Positions 34,528 to 50,921 of a stretch of DNA of 64,000 nt are shown here, piece by piece; position 1 is the stretch's first letter; every line of letters begins with the position of its first letter. The position numbers and the translations under genes are program-made. The DNA lies in assembly GCA_045649505.1 (NCBI GenBank), contig JAZRQA010000061.1, positions 7,235 to 71,234 of the forward strand, given 5' to 3'. This DNA comes from Acutalibacteraceae bacterium (GTDB lineage Bacteria > Bacillota > Clostridia > Oscillospirales > Acutalibacteraceae). The notes below the pieces were generated by a model. The model saw only the letters and a program-made list of their open reading frames with translations, was not told the DNA's origin and did no database searches.

Positions 34528-34796
34528 TTGTCTCACCTCCTGTGTAGTGATTATAATGAATATAGGTTGGTGAAAAAGCGCACTTGCGCTTTTTCACGGA
34601 CAAATTTTTAATTTGTCCGTGAAATTATAAAAATAATTTCACCTATTTCATTGCAATGATGTCGGCGTAAATAATCAAGGATTATTTACATAAAACCGCT
34701 ATGTGTAGCGGTTTTTCGAAAAACCTTTATTTGAAAGCTTTTCGACTACCGATTATCATTATAAAAACGTATATTGATTTTTCGGAGGAAAAAACT

Positions 34797-36080
34797 ATGG
34801 ATAAAGCGTTAATTGGTACAAAATGTGTACAAGGCGGTTACCGTCCTTCAAACGGTGAACCAAGACAGGTACCCATTATTCAGAGTACCACTTTTAAATA
34901 TGCTACAAGCGAGGAAATGGGCAAGCTGTTTGACCTTGAGGCAAGCGGTTATTTCTATTCCCGTCTTCAAAACCCCACCTGTGACACGGTTGCTGCAAAG
35001 ATATGCGAGCTTGAGGGCGGAACTGCCGCAATGCTTACCTCATCGGGTATGGCGGCAAGCTTTCTCGCTGTGTTTAATATTTGTTCTTGCGGAGACCATT
35101 TCATTTCAAGTTCAGCAATTTACGGCGGAACATTTAACCTTTTTGCGGTTACACTAAAGAGAATGGGTATTGAATGTACCTTTATCTCCCCCGACTGCAC
35201 CGATGAAGAGTTTCACGCCGCCTTTAAGGATAACACCAAGCTTGTATTTGGTGAGACCATTGCCAACCCTGCTTTAAGGGTTTTGGATATTGAGCGTTTT
35301 GCCAATATTGCGCACGCCCACGGCGTTCCCCTTATTATTGATAACACCTTCCCCACACCCGTTCACTGCAGACCTTTTGAGTGGGGTGCTGATATTGTTA
35401 CCCACGCTACCACAAAGTATATGGACGGTCACGGAAGTGCTGTAGGCGGTGCTATAGTTGATTCGGGTAAATTTGACTGGACTAAATATCCCGATAAATT
35501 CCCCGGACTTTGCACACCCGATGAAAGCTATCACGGTATTACCTACACCGAACGTTTTGGTATTGAGGGCGCATATATAACCAAGGCCACCGCTCAGCTT
35601 ATGCGCGACCTTGGCGTTACCGCCGCACCTATGAGCGCATATCTTTTAAACCTTGGTCTTGAGAGCCTGCACGTAAGGATGAAGCGACACTCCGATAACG
35701 GTCTTGCAGTTGCTAAATTCCTTGAGAATCACGAAAAAATCGGTTGGGTTAATTTCCCTGGGCTTGAGGGCAACGAGGATTATGAATTAACACAAAAATA
35801 TCTTCCCGACGGCACCTGCGGTGTAATCAGCTTCGGTGTTAAAGGCGGAAGAGAGGCAGCCTCTAAGTTTATGAAGGCGCTAAACCTTATTGCTATTGAA
35901 ACTCATGTTGCCGATGCTCGTTCGTGTTGTCTGCACCCTGCTACCGCAACACACAGACAGTTAAGCGATGAAGAACTTGTCTTAGCGGGAGTTGGTCCCG
36001 ACCTTATCCGTCTTTCTTGCGGTCTTGAGGATGCCGCCGACCTTATTGCCGATATTGAACAGGCACTGAGCAATGTATAA
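34797..36080 (+). CDS. metY: O-acetylhomoserine sulfhydrylase (PLP-dependent Cys/Met family)
   Basis: 427 aa from MDKALIGTKCVQGGY. PLP-lysine region HATTKYMDGHG. GGAGGA lies upstream of ATG 34797. Confidence 0.9.
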   Translation: MDKALIGTKCVQGGYRPSNGEPRQVPIIQSTTFKYATSEEMGKLFDLEASGYFYSRLQNPTCDTVAAKICELEGGTAAMLTSSGMAASFLAVFNICSCGDHFISSSAIYGGTFNLFAVTLKRMGIECTFISPDCTDEEFHAAFKDNTKLVFGETIANPALRVLDIERFANIAHAHGVPLIIDNTFPTPVHCRPFEWGADIVTHATTKYMDGHGSAVGGAIVDSGKFDWTKYPDKFPGLCTPDESYHGITYTERFGIEGAYITKATAQLMRDLGVTAAPMSAYLLNLGLESLHVRMKRHSDNGLAVAKFLENHEKIGWVNFPGLEGNEDYELTQKYLPDGTCGVISFGVKGGREAASKFMKALNLIAIETHVADARSCCLHPATATHRQLSDEELVLAGVGPDLIRLSCGLEDAADLIADIEQALSNV

Positions 36081-36105
36081 AAATAATTTTTAACGAGGTA
36101 ATATA

Positions 36106-37023
36106 ATGCCTATTAAAATACCGAACGACCTCCCTGCAGTACAAACGCTGTTGGACGAAAATATTTTTGCCATAACCGAAACAAGGGCAATTACTCAGGA
36201 TATTCGTCCCCTTAAAATTCTGCTTCTCAATCTTATGCCTAAGAAGATAGAAACCGAGACCCAGATTTGCAGAATTTTGGGTAACACCCCCTTACAGATA
36301 GAGTTAACCCTTATCCGCACAAGCACCCACGAGGGTAAAAACACCTCAAAGGAACATCTTCTTGCGTTTTATAAGACCTTCGAGGATGTAAAACACGAAA
36401 ACTTTGACGGTATGATAATCACGGGCGCGCCCGTTGAGCAGCTTGAATTTGAACAGGTCGATTACTGGGATGAGCTTTGCACTATTATGGATTGGAGCAC
36501 CACTCATGTGCACAGTACAATGCACATTTGTTGGGGTGCACAGGCAGGTCTTTACCACCATTTTGGAATAAAAAAGCATCCCCTTGACAAAAAACTTTTC
36601 GGGGTATTTGCGCACAAATGCGAACACCCGAAATCTATGCTCCTTCGTGGCTTTGACAGCGTTTTTTACGTGCCCCACTCCCGTTATACCGAGGTAAGGC
36701 GCGAGGATATTCTTTCGTGTAAGGATTTAAAAATACTTGTTTCCTCACCTGAAGCAGGTGTGCATATTGTTGCCCAGAACGGCGGAAGAAGATTTTTTGT
36801 TATGGGTCACGCGGAATATGACCCCCTCACCCTTGATGCAGAATATAAGCGTGATGCCGCCGCGGGACTTGACACCGCAATCCCCAAAAATTACTATCCC
36901 GACAACGACCCCGATAAATTCCCCATTGTAAACTGGCGCGCACACGGAAGTCTTATTTTTATAAATTGGCTCAACTATTTTGTGTACCAGTCTACCCCCT
37001 ATGACCTAAAGGAAATAAAATAA
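36106..37023 (+). CDS. metA: Homoserine O-acyltransferase (MetA family)
   Basis: 305 aa. Motifs include [23 protein letters not shown] and ICWGAQA. Confidence 0.9.
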
Positions 37024-37041: not shown

Positions 37042-37070
37042 TTGACAAACAAAAAGCACTGTGTTACAAT
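37042..37070 (+). promoter_or_regulatory. Sigma-A type promoter of T-box leader 1
   Basis: TTGACA, 17-nt spacer, TG-n-TACAAT. Confidence 0.65.
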
Positions 37071-37076
37071 ACGAAA

Positions 37077-37353
37077 AAATATAAAGGCAATGACGAAGAC
37101 GGTTTAGTTTTTCGGTTTTCAGAGAATCGGCGGTTGGTGCAAGCCGATAACCTACAAACTTTGTAACCCATCCCTTCCGAGCCGGAGGTAAAAAAGGCGT
37201 TTCGCTTAGTAGATATCTCCCGTGATTGCTGCGTAAAGGCATAGGAATTGTAAGATTCCGAGAGTGGCAGTTTTTACTGCAATTTGAGTGGTACCGCGGA
37301 TGTGAATTATCACACTCGTCTCAAAGAAATTGAGACGGGTGTTTTTTATTTTT
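37077..37353 (+). promoter_or_regulatory. T-box riboswitch leader 1 (specifier read as AUC, Ile)
   Basis: Stem I has a GA motif (AATGA..GA), an AGAGA bay and a GGTGCAA distal loop. T-box core is AATTTGAGTGGTACCGCGG (37281-37298). Terminator spans 37312-37340 with a T-run. ATC at 37170-37172 lies just 5' of the lower helix. Confidence 0.9.
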
Positions 37354-37378: not shown

Positions 37379-39646
37379 ATGTCAACAGTAGAAAATAAAA
37401 AATTATTAGAGGTGGCGGCGCGTATTCGCGAAATGCGCGAAATCTGCTCGCTTAGTACCGAAGAAATGGCCGAAAAGACCGAGGTCAGCGTAGCCGAATA
37501 CGAGGCTTATGAGGCAGGAAAACAGGATTTCCCCTTTACCTTTATTCATAAATGCGCCCTTGCCTTTAACCTTGGAATTTCCGACCTGCTTGAGGGCCAC
37601 AGCGCCAACCTTTCCTCTTATACCGTTACCCGCAAAGGGCAAGGACAGGAGACAGCCAAGGAGGAAGGAATAAGTATTCAGAACTTGGCTCCCCTTTTCA
37701 GAAAGAAAATTGCCGAGCCTTATTGGGTACGCTATGACTATGACGAAAGTCTTCAAAACAAGCCTATTCATCTGACCAAGCATTCAGGTCAGGAGTTTGA
37801 CTTTGTTATGAGCGGTCGACTTAAAATTCAAATCGGTGATAATATTGAATATTTAAGCGAGGGTGACAGCATTTATTATAACTCCTCCACCCCTCACGGT
37901 ATGATAGCCGTTGACGGCAAAGAGTGTCTTTTTGTTGCCGTTGTTCTTCCCGGTGAGGATGAAAGCGAGCCCGCCGCAAGAAATACCATTATGTCGATGC
38001 ACACCTCCACCAAAAGGCTTGTGAGCGATGAATTTATCACCACGGCGGAGAACGAAAAGGGTTATCTTGAAAAGATTGACTTTAAAAATGAAGACCGCTT
38101 TAACTTTGCCTTTGATGTGGTTGATGCCATTGCAAAGAAGGACCCCGAAAAGCTTGCTATGCTTCATCTTGATAAAAACAAGGTGGAACGCCGCTTTACC
38201 TTTAATGATATGAAGCGCGCCTCTAACCAGTGCGCCAACTACTTTAAATCCCTCGGTATCAAAAAGGGTGACAAGGTTATGCTTGTACTCAAGCGTCATT
38301 ATCAGTTCTGGTATGCAATTCTTGCTCTGCACAAGCTTGGCGCAATAGCTATTCCTGCAACAAATCAGCTTGTTGCTCACGATTTTGAGTACCGCTTTAA
38401 CAGCGCCGATGTTAGCGCCATTGTTTGTACTGCTGACGGCGATGTTGCAAATCAGGTAGATTTAGCCCAGAGCACAAGCGCGACCTTAAAGACCAAGATC
38501 CTTGTGGGTGGCGAAAAAGAGGGCTGGCATAATTTTGATGAGGAATATCCTCTGTATTCAGCCCACTACTATCGTGATGAAAATACCGCCTGTGGTGATG
38601 ACCTTATGCTGATGTTCTTTACATCAGGCACCACAGGCTATCCAAAAATTGCCGCGCACAGCTATAAATATGCTTTAGGGCATTACATAACTGCAAAATA
38701 CTGGCACGGCGTGAGTGAAGGCGGACTTCATTTTACAATCTCAGAAACAGGTTGGGGCAAAGCCCTTTGGGGCAAGCTTTACGGACAATGGCTGTGCGAG
38801 GGAGCGGTGTTTACCTATGACTTTGACCGCTTCGCCGCAAGTGATATTTTGCCTATGTTCGCAAAATATAATATAACCACATTCTGCGCGCCCCCAACAA
38901 TGCTTAGAATGATGATAAAAGAGGATATCTCAAGGTATGACCTTTCCTCCATAAAGCATATGACCACTGCAGGTGAGGCTTTAAACCCTGAGGTTTACCG
39001 TCAGTTCGAAAAGGCAACGGGGCTTCAGATAATGGAAGGCTTCGGTCAGACCGAGCTTACCCTTGTTATTGCAAACCTTATGGGCGGCTCTCACAAGCTT
39101 GGCTCAATGGGAAAACCTACTCCCCTTTATGATGTTGATATTCTTGATCCTGACGGTAATCCAGTTGAGGACGGTGAAACAGGCGAAATTGTTGTTAAGA
39201 CAAGTGATAAGGTGCCCTGTGGACTGTTCAGCGGATATTACAAAAATCAAGAAAAAACCGACGAGGTATGGCACGACGGCTATTACCACACAGGAGATAC
39301 CGCCTGGCGTGATGAGGACGGATTCATCTGGTATGTGGGCAGAGTTGATGATGTTATCAAATCTTCGGGTTACCGTATAGGACCCTTTGAGATTGAAAGC
39401 GTTATAATGGAATTGCCTTATGTCCTTGAATGCGGCGTTTGCGCGGCACCTGATGAGGTGCGTGGTCAGGTAGTTAAGGCAAGCATTGTTCTGGTTAAGG
39501 GCACGAAAGAGTCCGATGAACTTAAAAAAGAGATACAGGATTATGTTAAGAATCACACTGCGCCCTATAAGTATCCGCGTATTGTTGAGTTCAGGGAGTC
39601 TTTGCCTAAGACGATAAGCGGTAAAATTCAGCGAAACAAGCTTTAA
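37379..39646 (+). CDS. XRE-HTH + cupin + medium-chain (ACSM/MACS-like) AMP-forming acyl-CoA synthetase fusion
   Basis: HTH_3 at aa ~10-72. Cupin at aa ~80-190 (GQEFDFVMSG..GDSIYYNSSTPHGM). Ligase from nt ~38090 (FNFAFDVVD, FFTSGTTGYPK, YHTGD, GYRIGPFEIE, SGKIQRNKL). Confidence 0.85.
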   Translation: MSTVENKKLLEVAARIREMREICSLSTEEMAEKTEVSVAEYEAYEAGKQDFPFTFIHKCALAFNLGISDLLEGHSANLSSYTVTRKGQGQETAKEEGISIQNLAPLFRKKIAEPYWVRYDYDESLQNKPIHLTKHSGQEFDFVMSGRLKIQIGDNIEYLSEGDSIYYNSSTPHGMIAVDGKECLFVAVVLPGEDESEPAARNTIMSMHTSTKRLVSDEFITTAENEKGYLEKIDFKNEDRFNFAFDVVDAIAKKDPEKLAMLHLDKNKVERRFTFNDMKRASNQCANYFKSLGIKKGDKVMLVLKRHYQFWYAILALHKLGAIAIPATNQLVAHDFEYRFNSADVSAIVCTADGDVANQVDLAQSTSATLKTKILVGGEKEGWHNFDEEYPLYSAHYYRDENTACGDDLMLMFFTSGTTGYPKIAAHSYKYALGHYITAKYWHGVSEGGLHFTISETGWGKALWGKLYGQWLCEGAVFTYDFDRFAASDILPMFAKYNITTFCAPPTMLRMMIKEDISRYDLSSIKHMTTAGEALNPEVYRQFEKATGLQIMEGFGQTELTLVIANLMGGSHKLGSMGKPTPLYDVDILDPDGNPVEDGETGEIVVKTSDKVPCGLFSGYYKNQEKTDEVWHDGYYHTGDTAWRDEDGFIWYVGRVDDVIKSSGYRIGPFEIESVIMELPYVLECGVCAAPDEVRGQVVKASIVLVKGTKESDELKKEIQDYVKNHTAPYKYPRIVEFRESLPKTISGKIQRNKL

Positions 39647-39662: not shown

Positions 39663-39692
39663 TTGACACAAAGCCCACACTTATGATAAAAT
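39663..39692 (+). promoter_or_regulatory. Sigma-A type promoter of T-box leader 2
   Basis: TTGACA, 18-nt spacer, TG-n-TAAAAT. Confidence 0.55.
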
Positions 39693-39698
39693 ACTATA

Positions 39699-39996
39699 AA
39701 AATTGATAAAGGCTTTGACGAAGAGGGCATAATTTACCCCCTTGCCTTACAGAGAGATGGCGTTTGGTGCAAGCCATTGGCAAGAAATTATGTTTGTAGC
39801 TTCCGAGTCGGGAGAAAGAAAGGGGCGGCTTGCTCTGAGTAGAATCTTCCCGTGATTGCTGCGTAAAGGCATAGGAATTGTCAGATTCCGAGAGGGGCAG
39901 TTTTAAACTGCAATTTGAGTGGTACCGCGGGTCAACTGAAACTTTTCAGCGCTCGTCTCAAAGTCATAACTTTGGGACGGGTGTTTTTTTCGTCCC
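39699..39996 (+). promoter_or_regulatory. T-box riboswitch leader 2 (specifier read as GUA, Val)
   Basis: Same architecture as leader 1. Has AGAGAG, GGTGCAA, core AATTTGAGTGGTACCGCGG (39912-39930) and a terminator at 39952-39990. GTA at 39796-39798 is followed by G and then the CTTC lower helix. Confidence 0.9.
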
Positions 39997-40014: not shown

Positions 40015-42306
40015 ATGGAACAAATTACAGGGCTTGATTTTAAAATCAAGGAAATGGCGTCCCGTATCAGGGAGCTTCGAGAGCTTGAGGGCTTAACCAC
40101 CGCCCAGATGGCTTTGAAAACCGATATTAGCGAAGGTGAATATATAGAGTGTGAGTCGGGCAAAAAGGATTTGAACTTTGCCTTTATTTATCGTTGTGCA
40201 ATGGCGTTGAGCGTTAATGTTACCGATATTATCGAAGGTCACTCTCCTACACTTAAATCCTATACCGTTACCCGCTTCGGCGCAGGTCAGAAGGTTTCAC
40301 AGGCTCACGGTATGACCTATTATAACCTTGCTTATGCTTTCCGCGACAGAATAGCCGAGCCTCTTTATGTTCGCAGTGTTTACGACGAGAATGCCGAAAA
40401 CACAAAGGATATTGAGCTTACCACCCACGCAGGTCAGGAGTGCGACCTGATTATCGAGGGTAATCTTATGGTTCAGATTGGTGAGCACAGGGAGATTTTG
40501 GGCCCAGGTGACAGCATCTATTTTGATTCTGACACACCTCACGGTATGATAGCCGTTGGCGGTAAAGACTGTATTTTTTATGCCATTGTTCTTAATCCCA
40601 CAGGTGAGCCTATACCCGAGCTTACCACAAGGCAGGCGGTGAGAGAAAATCACAACGCCAAAAGAGATACCAAGAACCGTATATATAAAAAGTATATTGA
40701 TGTAGTTGAGAATGAAAACGGAACGCCTACCTCTATCACCTTTAAGAATACCGAGAAGTTCAACTTTGCTTTTGACCTTGTTGATGCTTTAAGCGAGCGC
40801 GAGCCTGAAAAAATGGCAATGTTGCACATTTCCCGAGATGGTGATGAGCGCCGTTTTACCTTTAAGGATATGAAAAAAGCAAGTGCCCAATGCGCTAACT
40901 ACTTTAAATCCCTCGGCATTAAAAAGGGCGACAGAGTTATGCTTATTTTAAAGCGTCACTATCAATTTTGGTTTGCAATGCTGGGTCTTAATAAGCTTGG
41001 CGCAATAGCTATTCCCGCACCTAATCAGCTTTTGGACCATGACCTTGAATACCGATTTAATGCGGCAGGGATTGACACAGTTATCTGCACCGCTGACGGT
41101 GATGTTGCAAGACAGGTAGATATTGCCGCCGCTAAATGCGATACAATACGTAATAAACTTATTGTAAACGGAAGCAGAGAGGGCTGGCGCAGTTTTGACG
41201 ATGAGTACACCCTTTTCAGTTCCCATTTTGAGCGTAATGAGGACTCACCCTGCGGTGATGACCCGATGCTTATGTTCTTTACCTCGGGTACTACGGGATA
41301 TCCCAAGATTGCAACCCATAACCACAAATATCCGCTGGGACACTTCCACACCGCCAAATACTGGCACGACGTTGACCCTGACGGACTGCACTTTACCATC
41401 TCGGATACGGGCTGGGCTAAGGCAATGTGGGGCAAGCTTTACGGACAGTGGCTGTGCGAGGCGGCAACCTTTGTTTATGACTTTGACCGCTTTGATGCGG
41501 CAGAAATTCTGCCCATGTTTGCAAAGCATAAGATAACCACCTTCTGCGCGCCGCCCACAATGCTTCGTATGATGATAAAGCAGGATATTTCAAAATATGA
41601 TTTCTCCTCTGTTAAGCATATGACCACTGCAGGTGAGGCTTTAAATCCTGAGGTATACCGTCAGTTTGAAAAGGCAACGGGACTGCAGATTATTGAAGGC
41701 TTCGGTCAGACCGAAAGCACTATGATTATAGGTAATATGGTTGGTGCTTCCCATAAAATCGGTTCAATGGGCAAACCTGCCCCTATTTATAATGTTAAGA
41801 TTGTTGACCCCGAAGGTAATGAGGTTGCCGTAGGCGAAACTGGTGAAATTGTTGTTGATATTTCAAACGGCGCGCCCTGTGGACTCTTTACAGGCTACTA
41901 CCGTGACGAGGCCAAAACAAAAGAGGTTTGGCATGACGGCTTCTATCATACGGGAGATACCGCCTGGAAGGATGAGGACGGCTTCTTCTGGTATGTTGGC
42001 CGTGTAGATGACGTTATCAAGTCCTCAGGCTACCGCATTGGTCCCTTTGAAATTGAAAGCGTTATTATGGAATTACCTTATGTTCTTGAATGCGGCGTTT
42101 GCGCCGCACCCGATGAAGTGCGCGGTCAGGTAGTTAAGGCAAGCATTGTTCTTGTTGATGGCACCGAGGGTACTGATGAACTTAAAAAAGAGATACAAGA
42201 GTATGTTAAAAAGCATACTGCGCCCTACAAATATCCGCGAATCGTTGTATTTAAGGATTCTCTGCCCAAGACGGTAAGCGGAAAGATACAAAGGAACAAG
42301 CTTTAA
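40015..42306 (+). CDS. XRE-HTH + cupin + medium-chain AMP-forming acyl-CoA synthetase fusion (paralogue of 37379..39646)
   Basis: Same three-part architecture. HTH-cupin module spans nt 40015-40596 and the ligase starts at ~40753. The C-terminal ~90 aa are nearly identical to the upstream paralogue. Confidence 0.85.
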   Translation: MEQITGLDFKIKEMASRIRELRELEGLTTAQMALKTDISEGEYIECESGKKDLNFAFIYRCAMALSVNVTDIIEGHSPTLKSYTVTRFGAGQKVSQAHGMTYYNLAYAFRDRIAEPLYVRSVYDENAENTKDIELTTHAGQECDLIIEGNLMVQIGEHREILGPGDSIYFDSDTPHGMIAVGGKDCIFYAIVLNPTGEPIPELTTRQAVRENHNAKRDTKNRIYKKYIDVVENENGTPTSITFKNTEKFNFAFDLVDALSEREPEKMAMLHISRDGDERRFTFKDMKKASAQCANYFKSLGIKKGDRVMLILKRHYQFWFAMLGLNKLGAIAIPAPNQLLDHDLEYRFNAAGIDTVICTADGDVARQVDIAAAKCDTIRNKLIVNGSREGWRSFDDEYTLFSSHFERNEDSPCGDDPMLMFFTSGTTGYPKIATHNHKYPLGHFHTAKYWHDVDPDGLHFTISDTGWAKAMWGKLYGQWLCEAATFVYDFDRFDAAEILPMFAKHKITTFCAPPTMLRMMIKQDISKYDFSSVKHMTTAGEALNPEVYRQFEKATGLQIIEGFGQTESTMIIGNMVGASHKIGSMGKPAPIYNVKIVDPEGNEVAVGETGEIVVDISNGAPCGLFTGYYRDEAKTKEVWHDGFYHTGDTAWKDEDGFFWYVGRVDDVIKSSGYRIGPFEIESVIMELPYVLECGVCAAPDEVRGQVVKASIVLVDGTEGTDELKKEIQEYVKKHTAPYKYPRIVVFKDSLPKTVSGKIQRNKL

Positions 42307-42971
42307 TGAAGGAATTTAAACGTTTAACTTTACTTTGCGGGCATTACGGCAGCGGCAAAACAAATGTTGCGGTTAATGTTGCATTTGAGCTTAAAAAAGT
42401 GTATAATAATGTAGCCGTTGCGGATTTGGATATAGTTAACCCCTATTTTCGCGCAAAGGATTCCCGTAAGGATTTTGAGCACAAGGGCATTCGCCTTATC
42501 TGCTCGGAATATGCCAACACAAATGTTGACATTCCTGCCTTACCCGCGGATATCTACACCATTACGGTAGACAAAAGCATGTACACCGTACTTGATATCG
42601 GCGGCGATGACCGCGGCGCCTACGCCCTTGGAAGAATTGCTGATGATATTAAGGCGGAAGACAACTACGAGATGCTTATGGTAATAAACCGCTACCGTCC
42701 GCTTACCCCCGACGCGCAAAGCACTCTCGAGGTTATGCGGGAAATTGAGGCGGCGTGCAAAATCCCCTTTACGGGACTTGTTAATAATTCAAACCTCGGT
42801 GAGCTTACCGCGGCAAGCGATGTGCTTGAAAGCATACTCTATGCAAATGAGGTGTCAAGGCTTTCGGGGCTACCCGTGGTTATGACAACGGTAAATGAAA
42901 AACTGTATTGTGAGCTTGAGGACAGGGTGGAGAATTTATTTCCCCTTACTCTGCAATCCAAGTTGATATAA
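42306..42971 (+). CDS. P-loop NTPase of unknown function (SIMIBI/MinD-CooC-like)
   Basis: 221 aa. N-terminal GHYGSGKTN Walker A, hydrophobic strand plus DIGGDD as a Walker-B-like element. TAATG overlap with the ligase stop. Confidence 0.5.
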   Translation: MKEFKRLTLLCGHYGSGKTNVAVNVAFELKKVYNNVAVADLDIVNPYFRAKDSRKDFEHKGIRLICSEYANTNVDIPALPADIYTITVDKSMYTVLDIGGDDRGAYALGRIADDIKAEDNYEMLMVINRYRPLTPDAQSTLEVMREIEAACKIPFTGLVNNSNLGELTAASDVLESILYANEVSRLSGLPVVMTTVNEKLYCELEDRVENLFPLTLQSKLI

Positions 42972-42988: not shown

Positions 42989-43195
42989 ATGGCAAAGCTT
43001 ACATTTAAAACAGACCTTTGTAAGGGCTGCGGGCTGTGTGTTGATGCCTGCCCGAAAAATCTGCTGTGTCTGGCACCCGATAAGATAAATAAAAAGGGTC
43101 ACCACCCAGTGGAAATAACCGATCAGAATGCCTGTATTGGCTGCGCTTTTTGCGCTACTATGTGCCCTGATTGCATTATTAAGGTAGAAAGGTAG
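42989..43195 (+). CDS. 2x[4Fe-4S] ferredoxin (delta subunit of 2-oxoacid:ferredoxin oxidoreductase)
   Basis: CKGCGLCVDACP and CIGCAFCATMCP motifs. GGAG lies 9 nt upstream of ATG 42989. Confidence 0.85.
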   Translation: MAKLTFKTDLCKGCGLCVDACPKNLLCLAPDKINKKGHHPVEITDQNACIGCAFCATMCPDCIIKVER

Positions 43196-43206
43196 GGAAA
43201 AAGGAT

Positions 43207-44274
43207 ATGTCTGATAAGGTACTTATGAAGGGCAATGAAGCCATTGCGGAAGCCGCTATTATTGCAGGCTGCCGACACTATTTCGGCTATCCCATTACTC
43301 CCCAAACCGAAATCGCCGCATATATGGCAAAAAAAATGCCTAAAATAGGCGGAACATTTTTACAGGCAGAAAGTGAAATTGCCGCAATAAATATGGTCTA
43401 CGGCGTTTCCTCTACGGGTAAACGCGTTATGACATCATCCTCAAGTCCGGGTATTGCGCTTAAGAGCGAGGGACTTTCCTATCTCGCAGGCGCAGACCTT
43501 CCCGCACTTGTTGTAAATGTTCAGCGCGGCGGCCCCGGTCTTGGCGGTATTCAGCCCAGTCAGTCTGATTATTTTCAGGCTACCCGTGCAGGCGGTCACG
43601 GTGATTTCCGTATGATTGTTCTTGCCCCCGCATCCGTTCAGGAGATGGCAGAGCTTACCGTTAAGGGCTTTGAGCTTGCGGATACATACAGAATGACTTC
43701 TATGATACTTGCTGACGGTACAATGGGTCAGATGATGGAGCCCGTTTCCCTTGACCTTGAGGTTGCTCCCGCTCCCGAAAAGCCTTGGGCTACTACAGGC
43801 ACCAAGGGGATACGCCCCCACAATATTGTAAATTCACTTTTCCTTGCTCCCGAAGAGCTTGAGAAGTTTAATTTTGACCGTTTTGAGCGTTATAAATACA
43901 TTGAAGAAAACGAAGCAATGTATGAGGAATATATGATGGAGGATGCCGAAATTTGCATAGCTGCCTTCGGTATTGCCGCCCGTGTTTCTAAAAACGCTAT
44001 AAACGAGGCAAGAAAGCAGGGTATTAAGGTTGGTATGATTAGACCTATTACCCTTTGGCCCTTCCCTAACGCCCCATTTGAAAAAGCTGCAGATAAGGTA
44101 AATTCGATTATATGCGTTGAGCTTTCAATGGGTCAGATGATCGAGGATGTACGCCTTGCCACACACTGCAAGGTTGACGTAACCCTTTGCAACCGTGTAG
44201 GCGGTATGATACCCTCTCCCGAACAGGTGCTTGAGGCTATAAAAGTGGCGGCTAAAAACGGAGGTGCAAAATAA
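43207..44274 (+). CDS. 2-oxoacid:ferredoxin oxidoreductase alpha subunit (VOR/KOR type)
   Basis: 355 aa. Motifs MKGNEAIAEAAI.AGCR.YFGYPITPQ and QAESEIAAINM are typical of the four-subunit OFOR alpha subunit. Confidence 0.85.
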   Translation: MSDKVLMKGNEAIAEAAIIAGCRHYFGYPITPQTEIAAYMAKKMPKIGGTFLQAESEIAAINMVYGVSSTGKRVMTSSSSPGIALKSEGLSYLAGADLPALVVNVQRGGPGLGGIQPSQSDYFQATRAGGHGDFRMIVLAPASVQEMAELTVKGFELADTYRMTSMILADGTMGQMMEPVSLDLEVAPAPEKPWATTGTKGIRPHNIVNSLFLAPEELEKFNFDRFERYKYIEENEAMYEEYMMEDAEICIAAFGIAARVSKNAINEARKQGIKVGMIRPITLWPFPNAPFEKAADKVNSIICVELSMGQMIEDVRLATHCKVDVTLCNRVGGMIPSPEQVLEAIKVAAKNGGAK

Positions 44275-45029
44275 TGGTAGTTTTTGATAAACCTAAGGCT
44301 TTAACAGATGTGCCTATGCACTACTGCCCCGGTTGCACACACGGTATTGTTCACCGCCTTGTTGCCGAGGTTATTGATGAGCTCCAAATTGAGGGCAAGA
44401 CCATTGGTATTGCGCCTGTTGGTTGCTCTGTTATGGCTTATAACTATTTTAACTGTGATATGATTGAAGCAGCTCACGGACGCGCTCCTGCAGTTGCTAC
44501 GGGCGTTAAGCGTTCCGACCCTGACAACCACATCGTGTTTACATATCAGGGTGACGGTGACCTTGCTTCAATCGGTATGGCTGAAACCGTGCATAGCGCG
44601 GCAAGAAACGAGAACATCACCGTTATATTCATTAACAACGCAATTTACGGTATGACAGGCGGTCAGATGGCACCTACCTCTCTGCCCGGTCAGGTTACTC
44701 AAACCTCACCCTATGGCCGTGATGTAAAGCAATGCGGTTACCCCGTTAAGGTTTGCGAAATGCTTAGCGAGCTTGAGGGTCCCGAATATCTTGAGCGCGT
44801 TACCGTAAACAATGTTAAGAATATTAAAAACGCCAAGAAGGCTATAAAGAAGGCCTTCCAGAATCAGATAGACGGCAAGGGCTTCTCCCTTGTAGAGGTA
44901 GTTTCGACCTGTCCCACCAACTGGGGTATGACTCCGCAGAAGGCACTCAAATGGATAGATGACAATATGCTGCCCTACTATCCTTTGGGCGTTTATAAAG
45001 ACCGTTCTGCCCAAAAGGAGGAGAAATAA
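44274..45029 (+). CDS. 2-oxoacid:ferredoxin oxidoreductase beta subunit (TPP-binding)
   Basis: YCPGCTHG cluster/TPP region and GDGD..NNAIYGMTGGQ motif. ATG overlaps the alpha stop. Confidence 0.85.
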   Translation: MVVFDKPKALTDVPMHYCPGCTHGIVHRLVAEVIDELQIEGKTIGIAPVGCSVMAYNYFNCDMIEAAHGRAPAVATGVKRSDPDNHIVFTYQGDGDLASIGMAETVHSAARNENITVIFINNAIYGMTGGQMAPTSLPGQVTQTSPYGRDVKQCGYPVKVCEMLSELEGPEYLERVTVNNVKNIKNAKKAIKKAFQNQIDGKGFSLVEVVSTCPTNWGMTPQKALKWIDDNMLPYYPLGVYKDRSAQKEEK

Positions 45030-45568
45030 TGAGTACCAAAAATTTTCTGTTTTCCGGTTTCGGTGGTCAGGGTATTCTCTTTGCAGGTAAGTTCCTTGCC
45101 TACAAGGGTCTGTATGAAGGTAAAAATGTAAGCTGGCTGCCCTCCTACGGCCCCGAAATGCGCGGCGGTACCGCAAGCTGCTCGGTTATTGTAAGCGAAG
45201 AAGCAGTTGGCTCGCCGATAGTATCAAACCCCGATATTCTGGTTGCAATGAATCTGCCCAGCCTTGATAAATTTGAAAATGATATTGTATCAGGCGGTCT
45301 TGTGTTTGCCGATTCCGCTCTTATTGAGCGCAAGGTAAACCGTGACGATATTACCGCTTATTACATTCCTGCAACCCGTCTTGCAGGTGAAAACGGTATG
45401 CCCACGCTTGCTAATATGATTATTATGGGCAAGATTTTAAAGGTGCTCGGCGAGTATGATGAGGAAAGCCTTAAAGCTACAATGGCAAAGGTTATCCCCC
45501 CGAAGCACGCAGATATGCTTGAAGTAAACCTTAAGGCACTTAAAATCGGTGCCAATTATGAGGAGTAA
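45029..45568 (+). CDS. 2-oxoacid:ferredoxin oxidoreductase gamma subunit
   Basis: 179 aa. GFGGQGILFAGK motif. ATG overlaps the beta stop. Confidence 0.85.
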   Translation: MSTKNFLFSGFGGQGILFAGKFLAYKGLYEGKNVSWLPSYGPEMRGGTASCSVIVSEEAVGSPIVSNPDILVAMNLPSLDKFENDIVSGGLVFADSALIERKVNRDDITAYYIPATRLAGENGMPTLANMIIMGKILKVLGEYDEESLKATMAKVIPPKHADMLEVNLKALKIGANYEE

Positions 45569-45573
45569 TTAAA

Positions 45574-46635
45574 ATGGAAATTTCTATTACAAAAACAACT
45601 GCGCCCAAGGTTAAGCCCGAGGCTTCAACCCTTGGTTTTGGTAAATTCTTTACCGACCATATGTTTATGATGGACTTCTCCCGCGAGGAAGGTTGGCACG
45701 ATGCAAGAATTATCCCCTTTGCCAACATCTCTTTGCACCCTGCCTCCACCGTACTACACTACGGCTCCGAAATATTTGAGGGCTTAAAAGCCTACCGTCG
45801 CGCAGACGGCAAGGTTCAATTGTTCAGACCTATGGAAAACATCCGCAGAATGAACAACTCTGCTGACAGACTTTGTCTGCCTCAGATTCCTGAGGATATG
45901 GCCCTTGAGGTATTAACTAAATTTGTAGAGCTTGAGCAGGATTGGACGCCCAGCGCAGAGGGTACCTCCCTCTATCTTCGTCCCTTTATGTTCGGCAATG
46001 ACGAATCCCTCGGTGTTCACGCCGTTCATAACGCAACCTTTGTTATAATAGCTTCCCCTGTTGGCAGCTATTATAAAGAGGGTATAAACCCTGTCAAGAT
46101 TATGATTGAGGATGAGGATGTCCGTGCGGTACGCGGCGGTACAGGTTATGCCAAATGCGGCGGTAACTATGCCGCATCCAACCGTGCAGGTGAGCGTGCC
46201 GAGCAAAAGGGTTATTCTCAGGTGCTCTGGCTTGACGGTGTTGAGCGTAAATATATTGAGGAGGTTGGCGCCATGAACGTTATGTTCAAAATCGGCGGCG
46301 AGGTTATCACTCCTATGCTTTCAGGCTCCATTCTCCCCGGTATTACAAGAAAGTCCTGTATTGAGGTTCTTAAAAAGGCGGGCTACACCGTAAGCGAGCG
46401 ACTGCTCAGCATTGATGAGCTTGCCGCCGCTATGGAAAACGGTACCCTTGAGGAGGCATGGGGTTGCGGTACTGCCGCAGTTGTTTCCCCCATTGGCGAG
46501 CTTTGCTACAAGGATAAGAAATACACCGTTAATAACGGTGAGATAGGCAAGGTTACCCAGATGCTTTACGATACCTTGACAGGTATTCAGTGGGGTAAAA
46601 TTGAGGACACATTTAATTGGACCTACGAGATATAA
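45574..46635 (+). CDS. ilvE: Branched-chain amino acid aminotransferase (class IV PLP, long form)
   Basis: 353 aa. Motifs include FTDHMF, HYGSEIFEGLKAY, KCGGNYAAS and ILPGITR. Confidence 0.9.
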   Translation: MEISITKTTAPKVKPEASTLGFGKFFTDHMFMMDFSREEGWHDARIIPFANISLHPASTVLHYGSEIFEGLKAYRRADGKVQLFRPMENIRRMNNSADRLCLPQIPEDMALEVLTKFVELEQDWTPSAEGTSLYLRPFMFGNDESLGVHAVHNATFVIIASPVGSYYKEGINPVKIMIEDEDVRAVRGGTGYAKCGGNYAASNRAGERAEQKGYSQVLWLDGVERKYIEEVGAMNVMFKIGGEVITPMLSGSILPGITRKSCIEVLKKAGYTVSERLLSIDELAAAMENGTLEEAWGCGTAAVVSPIGELCYKDKKYTVNNGEIGKVTQMLYDTLTGIQWGKIEDTFNWTYEI

Positions 46636-46639
46636 TCTT

Positions 46640-46675
46640 AAAACCCTTTTGTTTGCGCAAAAGGGTTTTTCTTTT
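46640..46675 (+). terminator. Intrinsic terminator ending the ligase-VOR-ilvE operon
   Basis: AAAACCCTTTT-N8-AAAAGGGTTTT followed by a T-rich run. Confidence 0.8.
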
Positions 46676-46684
46676 AAAAAGATG

Positions 46685-46713
46685 TTGACAAATAATTTCA
46701 CTTATGATATAAT
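46685..46713 (+). promoter_or_regulatory. Sigma-A type promoter of T-box leader 3
   Basis: TTGACA, 17-nt spacer, TG-n-TATAAT. Confidence 0.65.
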
Positions 46714-46719
46714 ACATAA

Positions 46720-46992
46720 AAATTTTTGAAATGCTATGAAGGAATTATTTTTGATTCTCCCCTTCCTTTCAGAGAGCTGCTGTTTGGTGCAAGGCGGTAG
46801 GAAGCGAACCGAAAAGTCTCATTCCGGAGCAGAGCGGCTGAAAATTAAGTTAAGCTGCTACGGTTTGCCCCGTTATCTTGGCAGAAGGCTTGTTAGAGCC
46901 TTAGTGAGTGACCGTGTTATACGGTAATCAGGGTGGTACCGCGAATTATTATTCGTCCCTGAGGTTGGATGTCCCGGCCTCAGGGACTTTTT
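46720..46992 (+). promoter_or_regulatory. T-box riboswitch leader 3 (specifier read as CUC, Leu)
   Basis: GA motif (TATGA..GGA), AGAGAG, GGTGCAA, core AATCAGGGTGGTACCGCG (46926-46943). Terminator is GTCCCTGAGG-N13-CCTCAGGGAC plus T5 (46955-46992). CTC at 46818-46820 is followed by A and then the TTCC lower helix. Confidence 0.9.
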
Positions 46993-47031
46993 ATGTGGTA
47001 AAAAAATTAGCGCGAAAGGTCGAAGAAAGAA

Positions 47032-48411
47032 ATGCAAAAAATCAAAATTATTGACAACACTCTTGCAAGAGAAAACGGCACTTTTTCTTTTAAGGAAAAA
47101 ATTGAGATTGCCCGTCAGCTTGAAAAATTAAATGTCGACACCATTGAACTTAGCGAAATTGAGAATGAGCACACCGATATTCTTCTTGTGCGCACCCTTT
47201 CTTCATTTGTTAAAAACAGTACCGTTTCGGTTGGAGCAGGCTCCGATGCAAAGAGTATTGAAAACGCCGCAGCTGCTCTTAGCGGCACTAATAATCCTTG
47301 TATCCGAATTGAGCTTCCCCTCTCCACTGTCGGTATGGAATATATCAGTCGCAAAAAGGCGCCTAAGATGCTCGAATGGATTAGCGAGTGCGTTACCGCC
47401 GCTAAGAAGAAGTGCAGCGAGGTTGAATTTTGCGCGGTAGACGCTACACGCGCCGATAAGGATTTTTTAATTACAGCCATTGACACTGCCGCCAAGGCGG
47501 GTGCAACAAGAATTTGTATTTGTGACAGCACAGGAAATATGATGCCTGATGATTTTGCCGCCTTTGCCAGCGAGGTTAAGGCAACTACAAATCTACCTGT
47601 AGGTGTAAAATGTAACAACAAAAACGGTCTTGCCGTTGCTCAGGCAATTCTCAGCGCAAGGCAGGGTATTGAATATGTTAAGGCGCAGGTAGGCTGTGAG
47701 GGTGTTGATCTTGAAATCTTTTCCGATATGGTTAAAAACTGCGGAAATGACTACGGCTTTTACTGCGATATAAAAACCACCGAGCTTCACAGGATAATTA
47801 ATCAGATTAAGTGGATTAGTGAAAATGCAAAAAGTGATAATTCGGCAATGCGCGTAGGCACAATTGAAGAATGGGGTATTCATCTTGATGCAAAGGATGA
47901 TATTGCCGCCGTTACCGCCGCCTCTAAAAAGCTTGGTTATGACCTTTCGGAGGAGGACTGTGCCAAGGTTTACGAAGAATTTTGCCGTGTTGCCGATAAA
48001 AAAGATGTAGGCGCTAAAGAGCTTGAAGCCATTATAGCAAGCGTTGCTTTGCAGGTGCCCGCCACCTATAAGCTTATAAACTATGTTGTAAACAGCGGTA
48101 ATATTATTTCTACAAGCGCACAGCTTACCTTAGAAAAGGACGGCAAGGAAATTCAGGGTGTACAGATGGGTGACGGTCCTATTGATGCCGCATTTAAAGC
48201 TATTGAGGGCATTATTGGCTGTCATTTTGAGCTTGATGATTTCCAAATTCAGTCGGTTACCGAGGGTAAGCAGGCACTTGGCAGTGCCATTGTTAAACTG
48301 CGTTCAAGCGGAAAGCTTTACTGCGGCAACGGTATCTCTACTGATATTATAGGAGCAAGTATTCGCGCATATATAAGCGCCGTTAATAAGATTGTTTACG
48401 AGGAGGCGTAA
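47032..48411 (+). CDS. 2-isopropylmalate/citramalate synthase homologue with degenerate active site and intact LeuA_dimer regulatory domain
   Basis: Aligns with LeuA over its full length. However, TLRDGEQ is replaced by TLARENG, HxHxxD by KCNNKNG, and GERAGN by GCEGVD. The C-terminal domain is conserved (GDGPIDAAFKAIE..SVTEG.QALG..V.L...G....G.G.STDII.AS..AY..A.NKI). Confidence 0.7.
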   Translation: MQKIKIIDNTLARENGTFSFKEKIEIARQLEKLNVDTIELSEIENEHTDILLVRTLSSFVKNSTVSVGAGSDAKSIENAAAALSGTNNPCIRIELPLSTVGMEYISRKKAPKMLEWISECVTAAKKKCSEVEFCAVDATRADKDFLITAIDTAAKAGATRICICDSTGNMMPDDFAAFASEVKATTNLPVGVKCNNKNGLAVAQAILSARQGIEYVKAQVGCEGVDLEIFSDMVKNCGNDYGFYCDIKTTELHRIINQIKWISENAKSDNSAMRVGTIEEWGIHLDAKDDIAAVTAASKKLGYDLSEEDCAKVYEEFCRVADKKDVGAKELEAIIASVALQVPATYKLINYVVNSGNIISTSAQLTLEKDGKEIQGVQMGDGPIDAAFKAIEGIIGCHFELDDFQIQSVTEGKQALGSAIVKLRSSGKLYCGNGISTDIIGASIRAYISAVNKIVYEEA

Positions 48412-48413
48412 AA

Positions 48414-50921
48414 ATGAAATTTTCCTTTTCAACAAAGGGTTGGCACGAAAGCACATTTGATGATTTCTGCCGTGTAGCACAGGAGCTGAAATTTGAAGGC
48501 ATTGAGCTGCACAACATTTATAACCGCCTCTTTACCGATAGGGACGGTGCTTTCCACGACTATACCGCCGCGGCTACTGTCCGCCGTCTTTATGAACGCA
48601 AGCTGACTCTTCCCTGTATTGACACCGTATGTAATATTGCCCGCGACGATATTGATTCCTGTTTAAAAGAAATCGGTGCCTGTGCTCAAATTGCAAAAAA
48701 TCTTCACATCCCCTGCATTCGTTTAAAGGCAACCGCTAATATCGGCGACCAAGATGCTACGCAACACCTTTGCGCAATTATAGAGAAGGCTCTACCCGAG
48801 GCAACCGATTTAGGTATTACCCTTTTACTTGAAACATCGGGTCTTTTTGCCGATACCAAGGCACTGCGTGTTATACTTGACAGCTTTGCAAGTGATAATT
48901 TAGCCGCTCTGTGGAATTTATCTGCCGCGTATTTTGAATTTGGAGAGGACGCCGACACCGTTATTAAGAACCTTGGTGCCTATGTACGCCATGTTCATTT
49001 CAGCGATGCGATAAAATCAGATGATGAGATAACCTACTGTCTTGCAGGCGAGGGCACGCTTCCCATAAAGGAAATGATGCTTGCTCTACGCTCGGTGAAC
49101 TATGATGGCTTTATCTCCCTTGTTTGGGACCCTACATGGTGCAGTGAACTCGACGATATGGAGATAATTTTCTCACAGTTTGTTAACTTTATGAAACAGT
49201 TTGCCGATACCTCCAGGAATGAGTCCACCCTTTATTACAACAGGGCGCATACGGGTAAGTATGTATGGAAAAAGGACCTGCTGATTGACGCCACCTTTTC
49301 ACAGGTGCTTGACCGTATGGTTGAGGAATTCCCCGACCAATATTGCTTTAAATACACAACCCTTGACTATACCCGTACCTATAGCGAGTTCAGAGATGAC
49401 GTTGACACCTTCGCCCGCGCTCTTATCAGTATGGGTGTTAAGGCGGGTAGCAAGGTTGCAGTTTGGGCGAGCAACGTACCGCAGTGGTATATTGCTTTTT
49501 GGGCAACCACAAAAATAGGCGCGATACTGGTTACCGTAAACACCGCCTATAAAATCCACGAGGCTGAATATCTGTTAAAGCAGTCTGATACACACACTCT
49601 GATTATGACGCAGGGTGCTAAGGACACCGATTACGGTAAAATAATAGCACGACTGTGCCCCGAACTTGAAAATTTAAAGGCGGGACAGTCACTGCACAGC
49701 AAAAAACTGCCCTTCCTGCGCAATGTTATAACAGTTGGATTTAGGCAAAGAGGCTGTATGACCTGGAGCGAAGCTGTTGCCCGTTCTTCGCAGGTGCCTG
49801 CCTCCGAGGTCTACCGTATGGCGGCCACCGTGGATAAGGACGATGTATGCAATATGCAGTACACATCGGGAACCACGGGATTCCCAAAGGGTGTTATGCT
49901 CACCCATTATAATGTTGTTAATAACGGCAAATATATCGGCGACCATATGGACCTTTCCACAGCCGACCGTATGATGATACAGGTGCCAATGTTCCACTGC
50001 TTCGGTATGGTACTTTCTATGACCGCAAGTATGACCCACGGTACAACAATGTATCCCCTGCCCTATTTCTCACCAGGGCCCGCGCTTTCCTGTGTGCACA
50101 ATGAGCATATCACCGCCTTTAACGGTGTTCCCACTATGTTTATTGCAATGATGCAGCACGCCGATTTTGCAAAAACCGATTTTTCGCATATGCGTGTTGG
50201 TATTATGGCAGGCTCAAACTGCCCTGCAGACCTTATGAAAAAGGCCACGCAGGTTATGAATATGACCGAAATCGTATCGGTTTACGGTCAGACCGAGGCT
50301 AGTCCGGGTTGCACTATGAGTAGCTACTACGATTCTCTTGAGGTGCGTACCGAAACTGTCGGAAGCGCTTTTGCCAATGTTGAGTGTAAGATAGTCGACC
50401 CCGAAACGGGCGAGGACTGCGATGTTGGTGTAACGGGTGAATTTGTCGCCAGGGGCTACAATATCATGAAGGGATATTACAAAATGCCCACCGCTACTGC
50501 CGAGGCTATTGATAAGGACGGTTGGCTCCATACAGGTGACCTTGCCTGTAAAACGGCTGAGGGAAACTATCTTATTACAGGCAGACTTAAGGATATGATA
50601 ATCCGCGGCGGCGAAAATATTTATCCTAAGGAGATAGAGGAGTTTATCTACACCAATAATAAGGTAAGCGACGTTCAGGTTATAGGCGTTCCCGACGAGC
50701 AGTACGGCGAGGAGATAATGGCGTGTATTATCCTTAAAAAGGGCGAAAGTATGACCGAGCAAGAGATGAGGGCATATATCTCCGCCAATATGGCAAGGCA
50801 CAAGGTGCCACGATATATTCAATTTATGGATAGTTTTCCGATGAATGCCGCAGGAAAGATTTTAAAATACAAAATGCGCGAGGATGCCGCACAGCGTTTA
50901 GGATTGAAGGCAGATAAATAA
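48414..50921 (+). CDS. Fusion of a xylose-isomerase-like TIM barrel (AP_endonuc_2) with a FadD/ACSF2-like AMP-forming acyl-CoA ligase
   Basis: TIM barrel at aa 1-~263 (FEGIELH, LLLETSG, YVRHVHFSD). Ligase at aa ~290-835 (QYTSGTTGFPKGVMLTH, YGQTE, WLHTGD, GRLKDMIIRGGENIYP, AGKILK). Confidence 0.8.
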   Translation: MKFSFSTKGWHESTFDDFCRVAQELKFEGIELHNIYNRLFTDRDGAFHDYTAAATVRRLYERKLTLPCIDTVCNIARDDIDSCLKEIGACAQIAKNLHIPCIRLKATANIGDQDATQHLCAIIEKALPEATDLGITLLLETSGLFADTKALRVILDSFASDNLAALWNLSAAYFEFGEDADTVIKNLGAYVRHVHFSDAIKSDDEITYCLAGEGTLPIKEMMLALRSVNYDGFISLVWDPTWCSELDDMEIIFSQFVNFMKQFADTSRNESTLYYNRAHTGKYVWKKDLLIDATFSQVLDRMVEEFPDQYCFKYTTLDYTRTYSEFRDDVDTFARALISMGVKAGSKVAVWASNVPQWYIAFWATTKIGAILVTVNTAYKIHEAEYLLKQSDTHTLIMTQGAKDTDYGKIIARLCPELENLKAGQSLHSKKLPFLRNVITVGFRQRGCMTWSEAVARSSQVPASEVYRMAATVDKDDVCNMQYTSGTTGFPKGVMLTHYNVVNNGKYIGDHMDLSTADRMMIQVPMFHCFGMVLSMTASMTHGTTMYPLPYFSPGPALSCVHNEHITAFNGVPTMFIAMMQHADFAKTDFSHMRVGIMAGSNCPADLMKKATQVMNMTEIVSVYGQTEASPGCTMSSYYDSLEVRTETVGSAFANVECKIVDPETGEDCDVGVTGEFVARGYNIMKGYYKMPTATAEAIDKDGWLHTGDLACKTAEGNYLITGRLKDMIIRGGENIYPKEIEEFIYTNNKVSDVQVIGVPDEQYGEEIMACIILKKGESMTEQEMRAYISANMARHKVPRYIQFMDSFPMNAAGKILKYKMREDAAQRLGLKADK

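Follow-up and report, generated by a model that had tools for sequence, protein, structure and literature searches.

The window analysed here, 64,000 nucleotides of the Acutalibacteraceae bacterium contig JAZRQA010000061.1 (assembly GCA_045649505.1), encodes two acyl-CoA ligases, referred to as ligase 1 and ligase 2, each of which begins with an XRE-like helix-turn-helix (HTH) domain followed by a cupin barrel. The term "module" is used for this N-terminal region of ~190 residues, and residue numbers are those of ligase 1. The reading that we favour, at about an even chance of being correct, is that the module, rather than being a repressor, would act on the ligase as an accessory domain that binds a metal and a ligand. 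For this ligase clade, the XRE-like and cupin domains would then be an obligate protein partner, present in the same chain or as a separate, translationally coupled subunit.

The window proteins were scored against Pfam and NCBIfam, structures were modelled with AlphaFold/AlphaFold2 and compared using Foldseek, and the PDB was searched with profiles. Both open reading frames share one layout, comprising a five-helix XRE-type HTH, a cupin, ~18 disordered residues and a MACS/MbcS-type acyl-CoA ligase. Their features are as follows.

37379..39646, + strand: ligase 1, HTH-cupin::MACS-type acyl-CoA ligase of 755 aa from the ATG, proposed 2-methylbutyrate-CoA ligase (open reading frame list, Pfam, NCBIfam, PDB).
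37385..37594, + strand: XRE-type five-helix domain, ligase 1 residues 3-72, net charge -6 (AlphaFold helices; PDB profile matches to SinR, 434 repressor and PbsX).
37646..37951, + strand: cupin barrel, ligase 1 residues 90-191, with invariant H135, E139 and H173 (Cupin_2, 39.8 bits; HppE alignment).
37955..38008, + strand: predicted flexible linker, ligase 1 residues 193-210 (predicted local distance difference test, pLDDT, <50 in the full-length model; lowest identity between the paralogues, 28%).
38009..39643, + strand: ligase proper, residues 211-755, with the motifs TSGTTGYPK and YHTGD and the C-terminal SGK lysine (3ETC, AMP-binding, AMP-binding_C, and MbcS below its cut-off).
40015..42306, + strand: ligase 2, HTH-cupin::ligase of 763 aa with its module at ~40015-40596, proposed isobutyrate-CoA ligase (open reading frame list, Pfam, NCBIfam, paralogue alignment).

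A Shine-Dalgarno sequence (AAGGTG) is present 5' of the ligase 1 ATG at 37379. No internal Shine-Dalgarno sequence with an ATG for a ligase-only product was seen at the domain junction of either ligase. The Pfam scores were 39.8 bits for Cupin_2 (cut-off 27.2), 217.5 for AMP-binding and 73.5 for AMP-binding_C in ligase 1, and 46.2, 224.4 and 74.6 bits, respectively, in ligase 2, with the Cupin_2 match at residues ~132-191. The HTH matches were weaker in both copies (HTH_19, HTH_31 and HTH_3 at residues ~12-73, 17.9-26.2 bits); those of ligase 1 (HTH_19 25.9, HTH_31 26.2 and HTH_3 21.4 bits) each lie slightly under the Pfam cut-off and those of ligase 2 are sub-threshold, unlike some orthologues, which exceed the Pfam HTH cut-offs. 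The HTH was nevertheless judged to be real, because the AlphaFold helices of the module (3-22, 27-33, 38-45, 53-62 and 67-72) form the five-helix XRE fold and the family profile of the module matched SinR, the 434 repressor, PbsX and 1Y9Q in the PDB. A search with the single module sequence gave weak matches, and the family profile was needed for clear ones. The module modelled alone had a pLDDT of 86.5, and the full-length model of ligase 1 (AlphaFold2, 92-sequence alignment) had a pLDDT of 83 and a predicted template modelling score (pTM) of 0.67, with the XRE domain at residues 3-72, a β-barrel at 90-191 and disorder at 75-79 and 193-210.

The ligase part of ligase 1 (residues 222-753) aligned with the archaeal ligase 3ETC, its closest solved relative, with an E-value of 2e-189. 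The MACS/ACSM core motifs TSGTTGxPK and YxTGD and the C-terminal catalytic lysine are visible in both translations and are invariant in 92 sequences. The best NCBIfam model was MbcS (NF047394), with 445 and 442 bits compared to an equivalog cut-off of 850; judged by these scores, the window ligases are related, and not equivalent, to the Staphylococcus aureus MbcS equivalog. A first-pass annotation, made by a model from the sequence of the stretch, had described an HTH and cupin front end of ~190 aa on both ligases and an ACSM/MACS-type ligase behind it. The front end was borne out by Cupin_2, the AlphaFold XRE fold and the PDB profile, and the ligase by AMP-binding, AMP-binding_C and the 3ETC match; the peptides it quoted correspond to ligase 1 residues 25-48 and 137-178. 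Of the three Pfam models it named, Cupin_2 and AMP-binding scored above cut-off and HTH_3 fell below. The linker of ~45 aa that it proposed proved shorter, as residues 193-210 alone are predicted to be disordered and the 3ETC alignment begins at residue 222.

The architecture is widespread. A profile search with the module found it in 307/400 genomes sampled across Clostridia, mostly in frames of ~760-820 aa, and approximately five-sixths of the 150 best module matches lay in frames of >680 aa. Thousands of full-length relatives share the precomputed domain string of the ligase. Outside Clostridia, within the phylum, the module was rarer and mostly free-standing (16/201 genomes at E 1e-25). 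The nearest related loci were found in gut and rumen metagenome-assembled genomes of Acutalibacteraceae, Ruminococcaceae and Oscillospiraceae. The first-pass annotation had called such fusions uncommon, an impression that these counts reverse, with the fusion being one of the standard ligase architectures of Clostridia. It had also raised a frameshift-fused artefact of two genes as an alternative; a frameshift or assembly artefact is ruled out, because one continuous module::ligase frame is also encoded at >590 loci of the species genomes scanned, and neither window copy has an interrupted frame. Compared with the window copies, the 124 fused homologues were 61-67% identical in the HTH, 69-73% in the cupin and 75-79% in the ligase, a pattern that indicates purifying selection on the module. 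At protein identities of 70-80%, saturation of synonymous sites is likely.

The split forms of the system carry much of the argument for a partnership. Free-standing proteins of ~185 aa, recovered by an exhaustive search, match the module over its whole length with 33-41% identity. Twenty free-standing XRE-cupin genes were fetched with their neighbourhoods, and in 16/20 an unfused MACS-type ligase gene follows directly 3' on the same strand. In 9/16 of these pairs the two genes are joined by a stop-start overlap (TAATG or TGATG) behind a GGGAGGA Shine-Dalgarno sequence, an arrangement typical of subunits made in a fixed ratio; the other pairs overlap slightly or are separated by 8-38 nt. Rfam analysis of the split loci found a T-box at the gathering score in 4/11, and in four split loci an Ile T-box lies 5' of the XRE-cupin gene itself. 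A regular-expression scan for T-box cores 5' of the split-form genes was mostly without a match, and the remaining split loci may have sub-threshold T-box leaders. From the adjacency of the split genes, the stop-start overlaps and the T-box 5' of the XRE-cupin gene, it follows that the module and this ligase clade are, on comparative grounds, a conserved pair, made as fixed-ratio subunits or as a single chain.

Some split loci showed individual peculiarities. In L008 (1501-3559) and L017 (3-2079), from two species of one genus, the XRE-cupin and ligase frames overlap by 29 nt in different frames, and the sole in-frame ligase ATG lies 17 nt inside the upstream XRE-cupin gene. Either the two genes overlap in an unusual way, or an ancestrally fused gene acquired a frameshift that both species share. 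In L033 (5968-10029), the XRE-cupin gene is kept and the ligase is lost, with YkuD and ClpB-like genes directly 3'; in the related L046 (5986-11675), YkuD and ClpB-like genes sit downstream of the ligase. The XRE-cupin gene of L033 is an orphaned module.

Characterised XRE-cupins are dimeric local repressors of neighbouring metabolic genes, whose operators, palindromes of 15-25 bp, lie between about -20 and +10 of the neighbouring promoters (PMC7901475; PMC12724383), and the regulators differ at their DNA interfaces (PMC7901475). The HTH positions of the module were examined in the 124 fused homologues. Positions 27, 38, 39, 42, 43 and 46, which we take to be the counterparts of the DNA-contacting residues of the 434 repressor, had a mean top-residue frequency of 0.37-0.42, compared to 0.70-0.75 for the whole HTH. 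These recognition-equivalent positions are the most variable of the HTH, are rarely basic, and are mostly acidic or hydrophobic: position 38 is Lys or Arg in none of the homologues and hydrophobic in 60%, and position 39 is Asp or Glu in 65%. The net charge of the HTH was negative in 124/124 homologues, with a mean of -5.2 (range -10 to -1). The residues that are invariant or nearly so (R15, I16, R20, Y41, E45, F53, F55 and C59) look like core or non-DNA surface, and R20 and E45 are the counterpart of the buried R10-E35 salt bridge of the 434 repressor. Helix 3 of the module (S-E-E-E-Y-L-A-Y-E-S-G) resembles that of HppE (T-P-E-T-V-A-A-W-E-N-G), and not those of 1Y9Q, SinR or PbsX.

No candidate operator emerged from the promoters. 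A conserved palindrome was not found across ~95 aligned promoters, which had only the TTGACA -35 and the extended -10 in common. In the window, neither promoter has a 15-25 bp palindrome near -20 to +10; no inverted repeat with arms of 7 bp occurs in promoter 1, and A/T-run repeats are the only ones in promoter 2. Inverted repeats were more numerous in the promoters than in mononucleotide shuffles (5.8 vs 2.6). This excess was rejected as an operator signal, as the inspected examples were A/T runs 5' of the -35 with no common motif or position. The HTH fold is kept, but each of the sequence proxies for DNA binding is negative, which suggests that the module would act on the ligase and not on DNA.

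The cupin has a putative metal site. H135, G137, E139, G146, G162, D163, S169, H173 and G174 are invariant in 109 sequences, and Q138 and D141 are conserved in >=90% of them. The first Foldseek match to the module model was 1Y9Q (E 1.8e-13), followed by HppE, Psf4, HEPD and MPnS (E 1e-13 to 1e-9). The family profile aligned with 1Y9Q at E 2e-9 and with HppE over residues 6-181 at E 9.5e-5; in the latter alignment H135/E139/H173 fall on HppE H138/E142/H180, which we take to be the Fe(II) facial triad (2-His-1-Glu) of that enzyme. The 2-His-1-Glu triad of HppE-like enzymes is therefore matched by alignment, and the metal site of the module is putative. HppE K23, presumably a substrate-contacting residue, aligns with a Gly/Ser position of the module. 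HppE consists of an HTH-like α-domain and a cupin and is an enzyme, so that an HTH-cupin architecture working without DNA has a precedent. The first-pass annotation likened the module to a one-component regulator and cited free-standing XRE-cupin repressors; the homology holds, but the closest structural relatives also include the HppE-type enzymes. A precedent for amino-acid binding is given by 1Y9Q, the nearest solved XRE-cupin, which has D-methionine in its cupin pocket (PMC7901475).

Eight positions in or near the barrel (92, 95, 98, 100, 110, 115, 131 and 192) are conserved within each copy and differ between copy 1 and copy 2. This fits a copy-specific ligand or partner, to judge by the residue patterns. 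Ligase 1 and ligase 2 are 66% identical overall. Over the first 200 residues they share ~45-55% identity, which falls to 28% near residues 201-240 and reaches 90-95% over the final 120, a gradient suggesting that the 3' ends have undergone gene conversion or are strongly constrained. At the nucleotide coordinates 41900-42306 vs 39240-39646 (+ strand), the C-terminal ~120 residues encoded are 90-95% identical, and the modules are ~50% identical. The divergence of the paralogues is concentrated in the module and in residues 201-240 and 361-400, and 43 two-copy genomes show, on average, the same N-to-C gradient.

The genetic context of the two ligases indicates their probable substrates. The regulatory elements and neighbouring genes are listed below.

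37042..37070, + strand: promoter of unit 1, TTGACA, 17 nt, TG-n-TACAAT (promoter scan, 11/12 matches, extended -10).
37081..37352, + strand: T-box leader 1, specifier AUC (Ile) at 37170-37172, terminator at 37312-37342 followed by a T run (RF00230, 90.3 bits, E 2.4e-19).
39663..39692, + strand: promoter of unit 2 (promoter scan, 11/12 matches, extended -10).
39706..39995, + strand: T-box leader 2, specifier GUA (Val) at 39796-39798, terminator at 39948-39985 followed by a T run (RF00230, 83.1 bits, E 1.7e-17).
42306..42971, + strand: P-loop nucleoside triphosphatase (NTPase), weakly CbiA/ParA-like, with a start that overlaps the ligase 2 stop (Pfam; position kept in most related loci).
42989..45568, + strand: four-subunit 2-oxoacid:ferredoxin oxidoreductase (Pfam Fer4, POR_N/PFOR_II, TPP_enzyme_C and POR).
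42989-43195, 43207-44274, 44274-45029 and 45029-45568, + strand: its delta (2x[4Fe-4S]), alpha, beta and gamma subunits, respectively (Pfam).
45574..46635, + strand: class IV (branched-chain) aminotransferase, BCAT (Aminotran_4, 109 bits).
46640..46669, + strand: operon terminator (terminator scan).

Both ligase genes thus have a strong promoter and a T-box leader of their own, and the promoter layout of unit 1 recurs in ~95 orthologous leaders. Both T-box leaders lie slightly under the RF00230 gathering score of 93, yet are full-length model matches, and both have the stem I specifier loop, the T-box core with the UGGN bulge and the terminator/antiterminator. The specifiers were read from the sequence; in related loci, most copy-1 leaders have ATC at the same position and copy-2 leaders have GTA or GTC at theirs. 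The Ile T-box thus gates ligase 1, and the Val T-box gates ligase 2, the P-loop gene, the oxidoreductase and BCAT. The cluster of ligase, P-loop, oxidoreductase and BCAT genes recurs in most of the 80 loci examined, and the P-loop NTPase may be a maturation or assembly factor. Directly 5' of the Ile unit, at 34701-37023 (+ strand), are homologues of O-acetylhomoserine sulfhydrylase and homoserine O-acyltransferase, named from their translations alone.

No match to KARI_C (IlvC) or ILVD_EDD (IlvD) was found in the 1.31-Mb, 96.8%-complete genome, and both were matched in 14/14 control genomes. MacsMa, the archaeal ligase of PDB 3ETC, prefers 2-methylbutyrate (PMC10455477), in agreement with what the first-pass annotation had said of an archaeal MACS ligase, and MbcS is reported to activate branched acids (PMC10026030). 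Taken together, the T-box specifiers, the oxidoreductase and BCAT cluster, the absent IlvC and IlvD and the MacsMa preference point to a salvage route from 2-methylbutyrate to Ile and from isobutyrate to Val by reductive carboxylation. By the same specifiers, gene context and analogy to MacsMa, the substrates of ligases 1 and 2 are probably 2-methylbutyrate and isobutyrate, respectively. The ligases would be the T-box-gated, ATP-consuming entry step that converts either acid to its acyl-CoA, the ferredoxin oxidoreductase would carboxylate the acyl-CoA reductively to the 2-oxoacid, and BCAT would convert the 2-oxoacid to Ile or Val. Apart from the route through these ligases, this 1.3-Mb genome appears to have no means of making Val and Ile.

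A third unit follows at 46685-51733 (+ strand), with a promoter, a T-box (123.5 bits, specifier CUC (Leu) at ~46827-46829) and three genes.

47032-48411, + strand: LeuA-like protein without the RDGEQ and HxH catalytic motifs, with the LeuA_dimer regulatory domain kept.
48414-50921, + strand: 835-aa fusion of a xylose-isomerase-like triosephosphate isomerase (TIM) barrel to an acyl-CoA ligase.
50921-51733, + strand: Amidohydro_2 protein.

The pair of LeuA-like and TIM::ligase genes is present in 28/29 related loci having the ~820-aa ligase. By analogy, the pairing of the Leu unit's ligase with a LeuA_dimer protein supports an enzyme-level regulatory module as its parallel in the Ile and Val units.

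In the mechanism that we propose, the cupin would hold a divalent metal on His135/Glu139/His173 and bind a small ligand, and the module would, through its helical domain and the short linker, modulate adenylation or thioesterification. The most economical ligand would be the end product, Ile for copy 1 and Val for copy 2, with the acid substrate as the alternative. Such a module would provide fast post-translational control on top of the slower tRNA-charging control exerted by the T-box. The metal binding, the identity of the ligand and the effect on catalysis are predictions. Of the two functions offered in the first-pass annotation, an allosteric sensor for the ligase is thus the one that we retain, and a DNA-binding regulator is disfavoured by the variable, acidic recognition positions, the lack of a palindrome and the coupled split genes. 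Several points weigh against the accessory-domain reading. The equivalence of the six recognition positions to those of the 434 repressor comes from our own alignment; variable recognition residues would also be expected if each species had its own operator. A repressor gene directly 5' of its target enzyme gene is a normal arrangement. The pTM of 0.67 and the disordered linker give no confident contact between the module and the ligase in the full-length model. The end product as ligand is a guess from pathway logic, with which the acid, the acyl-CoA, the 2-oxoacid or a metal alone would be equally compatible.

The principal rival is a trigger enzyme in the manner of BirA, PutA and NadR, in which a single chain would work as a ligase and also as a transcription factor; its DNA binding, switched by the ligand of the cupin or by the catalytic state of the ligase, would add a transcriptional layer atop the T-box. 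This is consistent with the end-to-end homology of the module with free-standing XRE-cupins (33-41%), its matches to 1Y9Q (profile E 2e-9, fold E 1.8e-13), the conservation of the fold-stabilising Arg20 and Glu45 and of the whole five-helix domain, and the repression of neighbouring metabolic genes by characterised XRE-cupins (PMC7901475; PMC12724383). However, the positions that would read DNA show the lowest conservation and carry acidic or hydrophobic residues, the HTH charge is negative throughout the homologues, and no 15-25 bp palindrome is present in the window promoters or conserved across the ~95; moreover, a stoichiometric fusion or coupling to an abundant enzyme would be unusual for a repressor, and the genes are already under T-box control. 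We consider a trigger enzyme rather unlikely. A related proposal, to which we give a small chance, is that the HTH-cupin binds DNA or the T-box leader RNA solely in a particular ligase state (acyl-adenylate, Ile or Val bound). If true, transcription would integrate two signals, "amino acid needed" as sensed by the T-box and "isoacid available" as sensed by the enzyme.

The structural kinship with HppE raises a different prospect, namely that the cupin is itself catalytic, as in HppE, Psf4 and KdgF, and performs an isomerisation, epimerisation or hydrolytic editing of the acid, acyl-adenylate or acyl-CoA; the helical domain would then serve substrate binding or oligomerisation, as in HppE. HppE, Psf4, HEPD and MPnS stand directly behind 1Y9Q in the Foldseek results, the profile alignment places the invariant H/E/H on the Fe(II) facial triad, and the Leu-branch ligase has another metalloenzyme-type N-terminal domain, the xylose-isomerase-like TIM barrel. 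A catalytic cupin is unlikely all the same: the route from acid through acyl-CoA and 2-oxoacid to amino acid needs no extra reaction, isobutyrate is without a stereocentre and yet copy 2 retains the site, oxygen-dependent chemistry is implausible in a gut anaerobe, and the identity to HppE is ~18%, with the presumed substrate contact Lys23 unmatched. At the other extreme, the module could be a scaffold only, whose cupin dimerises the ligase or docks it to the oxidoreductase or P-loop proteins without a ligand, the HTH being a relic. Cupins commonly dimerise, the module is acidic overall, and conservation links the ligase gene with the P-loop and oxidoreductase genes; XRE-cupins also bind as dimers (PMC7901475). 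A relic would not retain the invariant His/Glu/His surrounded by invariant or near-invariant Gln, Asp and Ser, nor copy-specific conserved positions inside the barrel, and an HTH conserved at 61-67% points to a surface that is in use. A pure scaffold is very unlikely.

A literature search found no paper on an HTH-cupin::acyl-CoA ligase fusion, in line with its description as uncharacterised in the first-pass annotation. The component families are known; what appears to be new is that they are obligately paired and that an XRE-cupin module likely has a role other than at DNA. It has long been known that rumen and gut Clostridia need isobutyrate, 2-methylbutyrate and isovalerate for branched-chain amino acids, and the window ligases, as likely entry enzymes of the isoacid route, are candidate genes for this physiology. 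The module is present in most sampled Clostridia. If it does sense a metabolite and directly control an adenylating enzyme, this would be the third documented use of the XRE-cupin architecture, after repressors and HppE-type enzymes. Hundreds of free-standing "XRE family transcriptional regulators" beside ligase genes may be enzyme subunits and not regulators. Control of the ligase by the module would also give a handle on isoacid use that is relevant to ruminant nutrition.

The module can be compared with four groups of known systems. The trigger enzymes BirA, PutA and NadR likewise combine an adenylate-forming or metabolic enzyme and an HTH-type domain in one chain; in them DNA binding and operators are demonstrated, whereas the window fusion has negative sequence proxies. 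The XRE-cupin transcription factors (PuuR, ErfA, PsdR, PauR and DbuR, and the structure 1Y9Q) resemble the module in their two-domain layout, their length of ~185 aa and their full-length homology, and are encoded beside the metabolic genes they relate to, with the cupin thought to bind a pathway metabolite. Unlike these proteins, which stand alone at ~180-200 aa, the window module is fused to a 545-aa ligase, or translationally coupled to it in split relatives. It also differs from the DNA-binding XRE-cupins in having a helix 3 without their polar and basic residues, an acidic domain, no palindromic operator found in the promoters searched and an invariant His/Glu/His. The mononuclear iron enzymes HppE, Psf4, HEPD and MPnS share its alpha-plus-beta architecture, its aligned triad and a similar helix 3 composition, and the HTH-like domain of HppE-type enzymes is not known to bind DNA. 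Unlike HppE, the module has ligase, oxidoreductase and BCAT genes and not phosphonate genes as neighbours, an anaerobic host, a sequence only ~18% identical, no counterpart of K23 and no evident catalytic role. The MacsMa and MbcS ligases are alike in the ligase part (3ETC, E 2e-189; MbcS as the best NCBIfam model, 445 bits) and lack the N-terminal HTH-cupin, and the product of the window ligases would feed amino-acid, not fatty-acid, synthesis.

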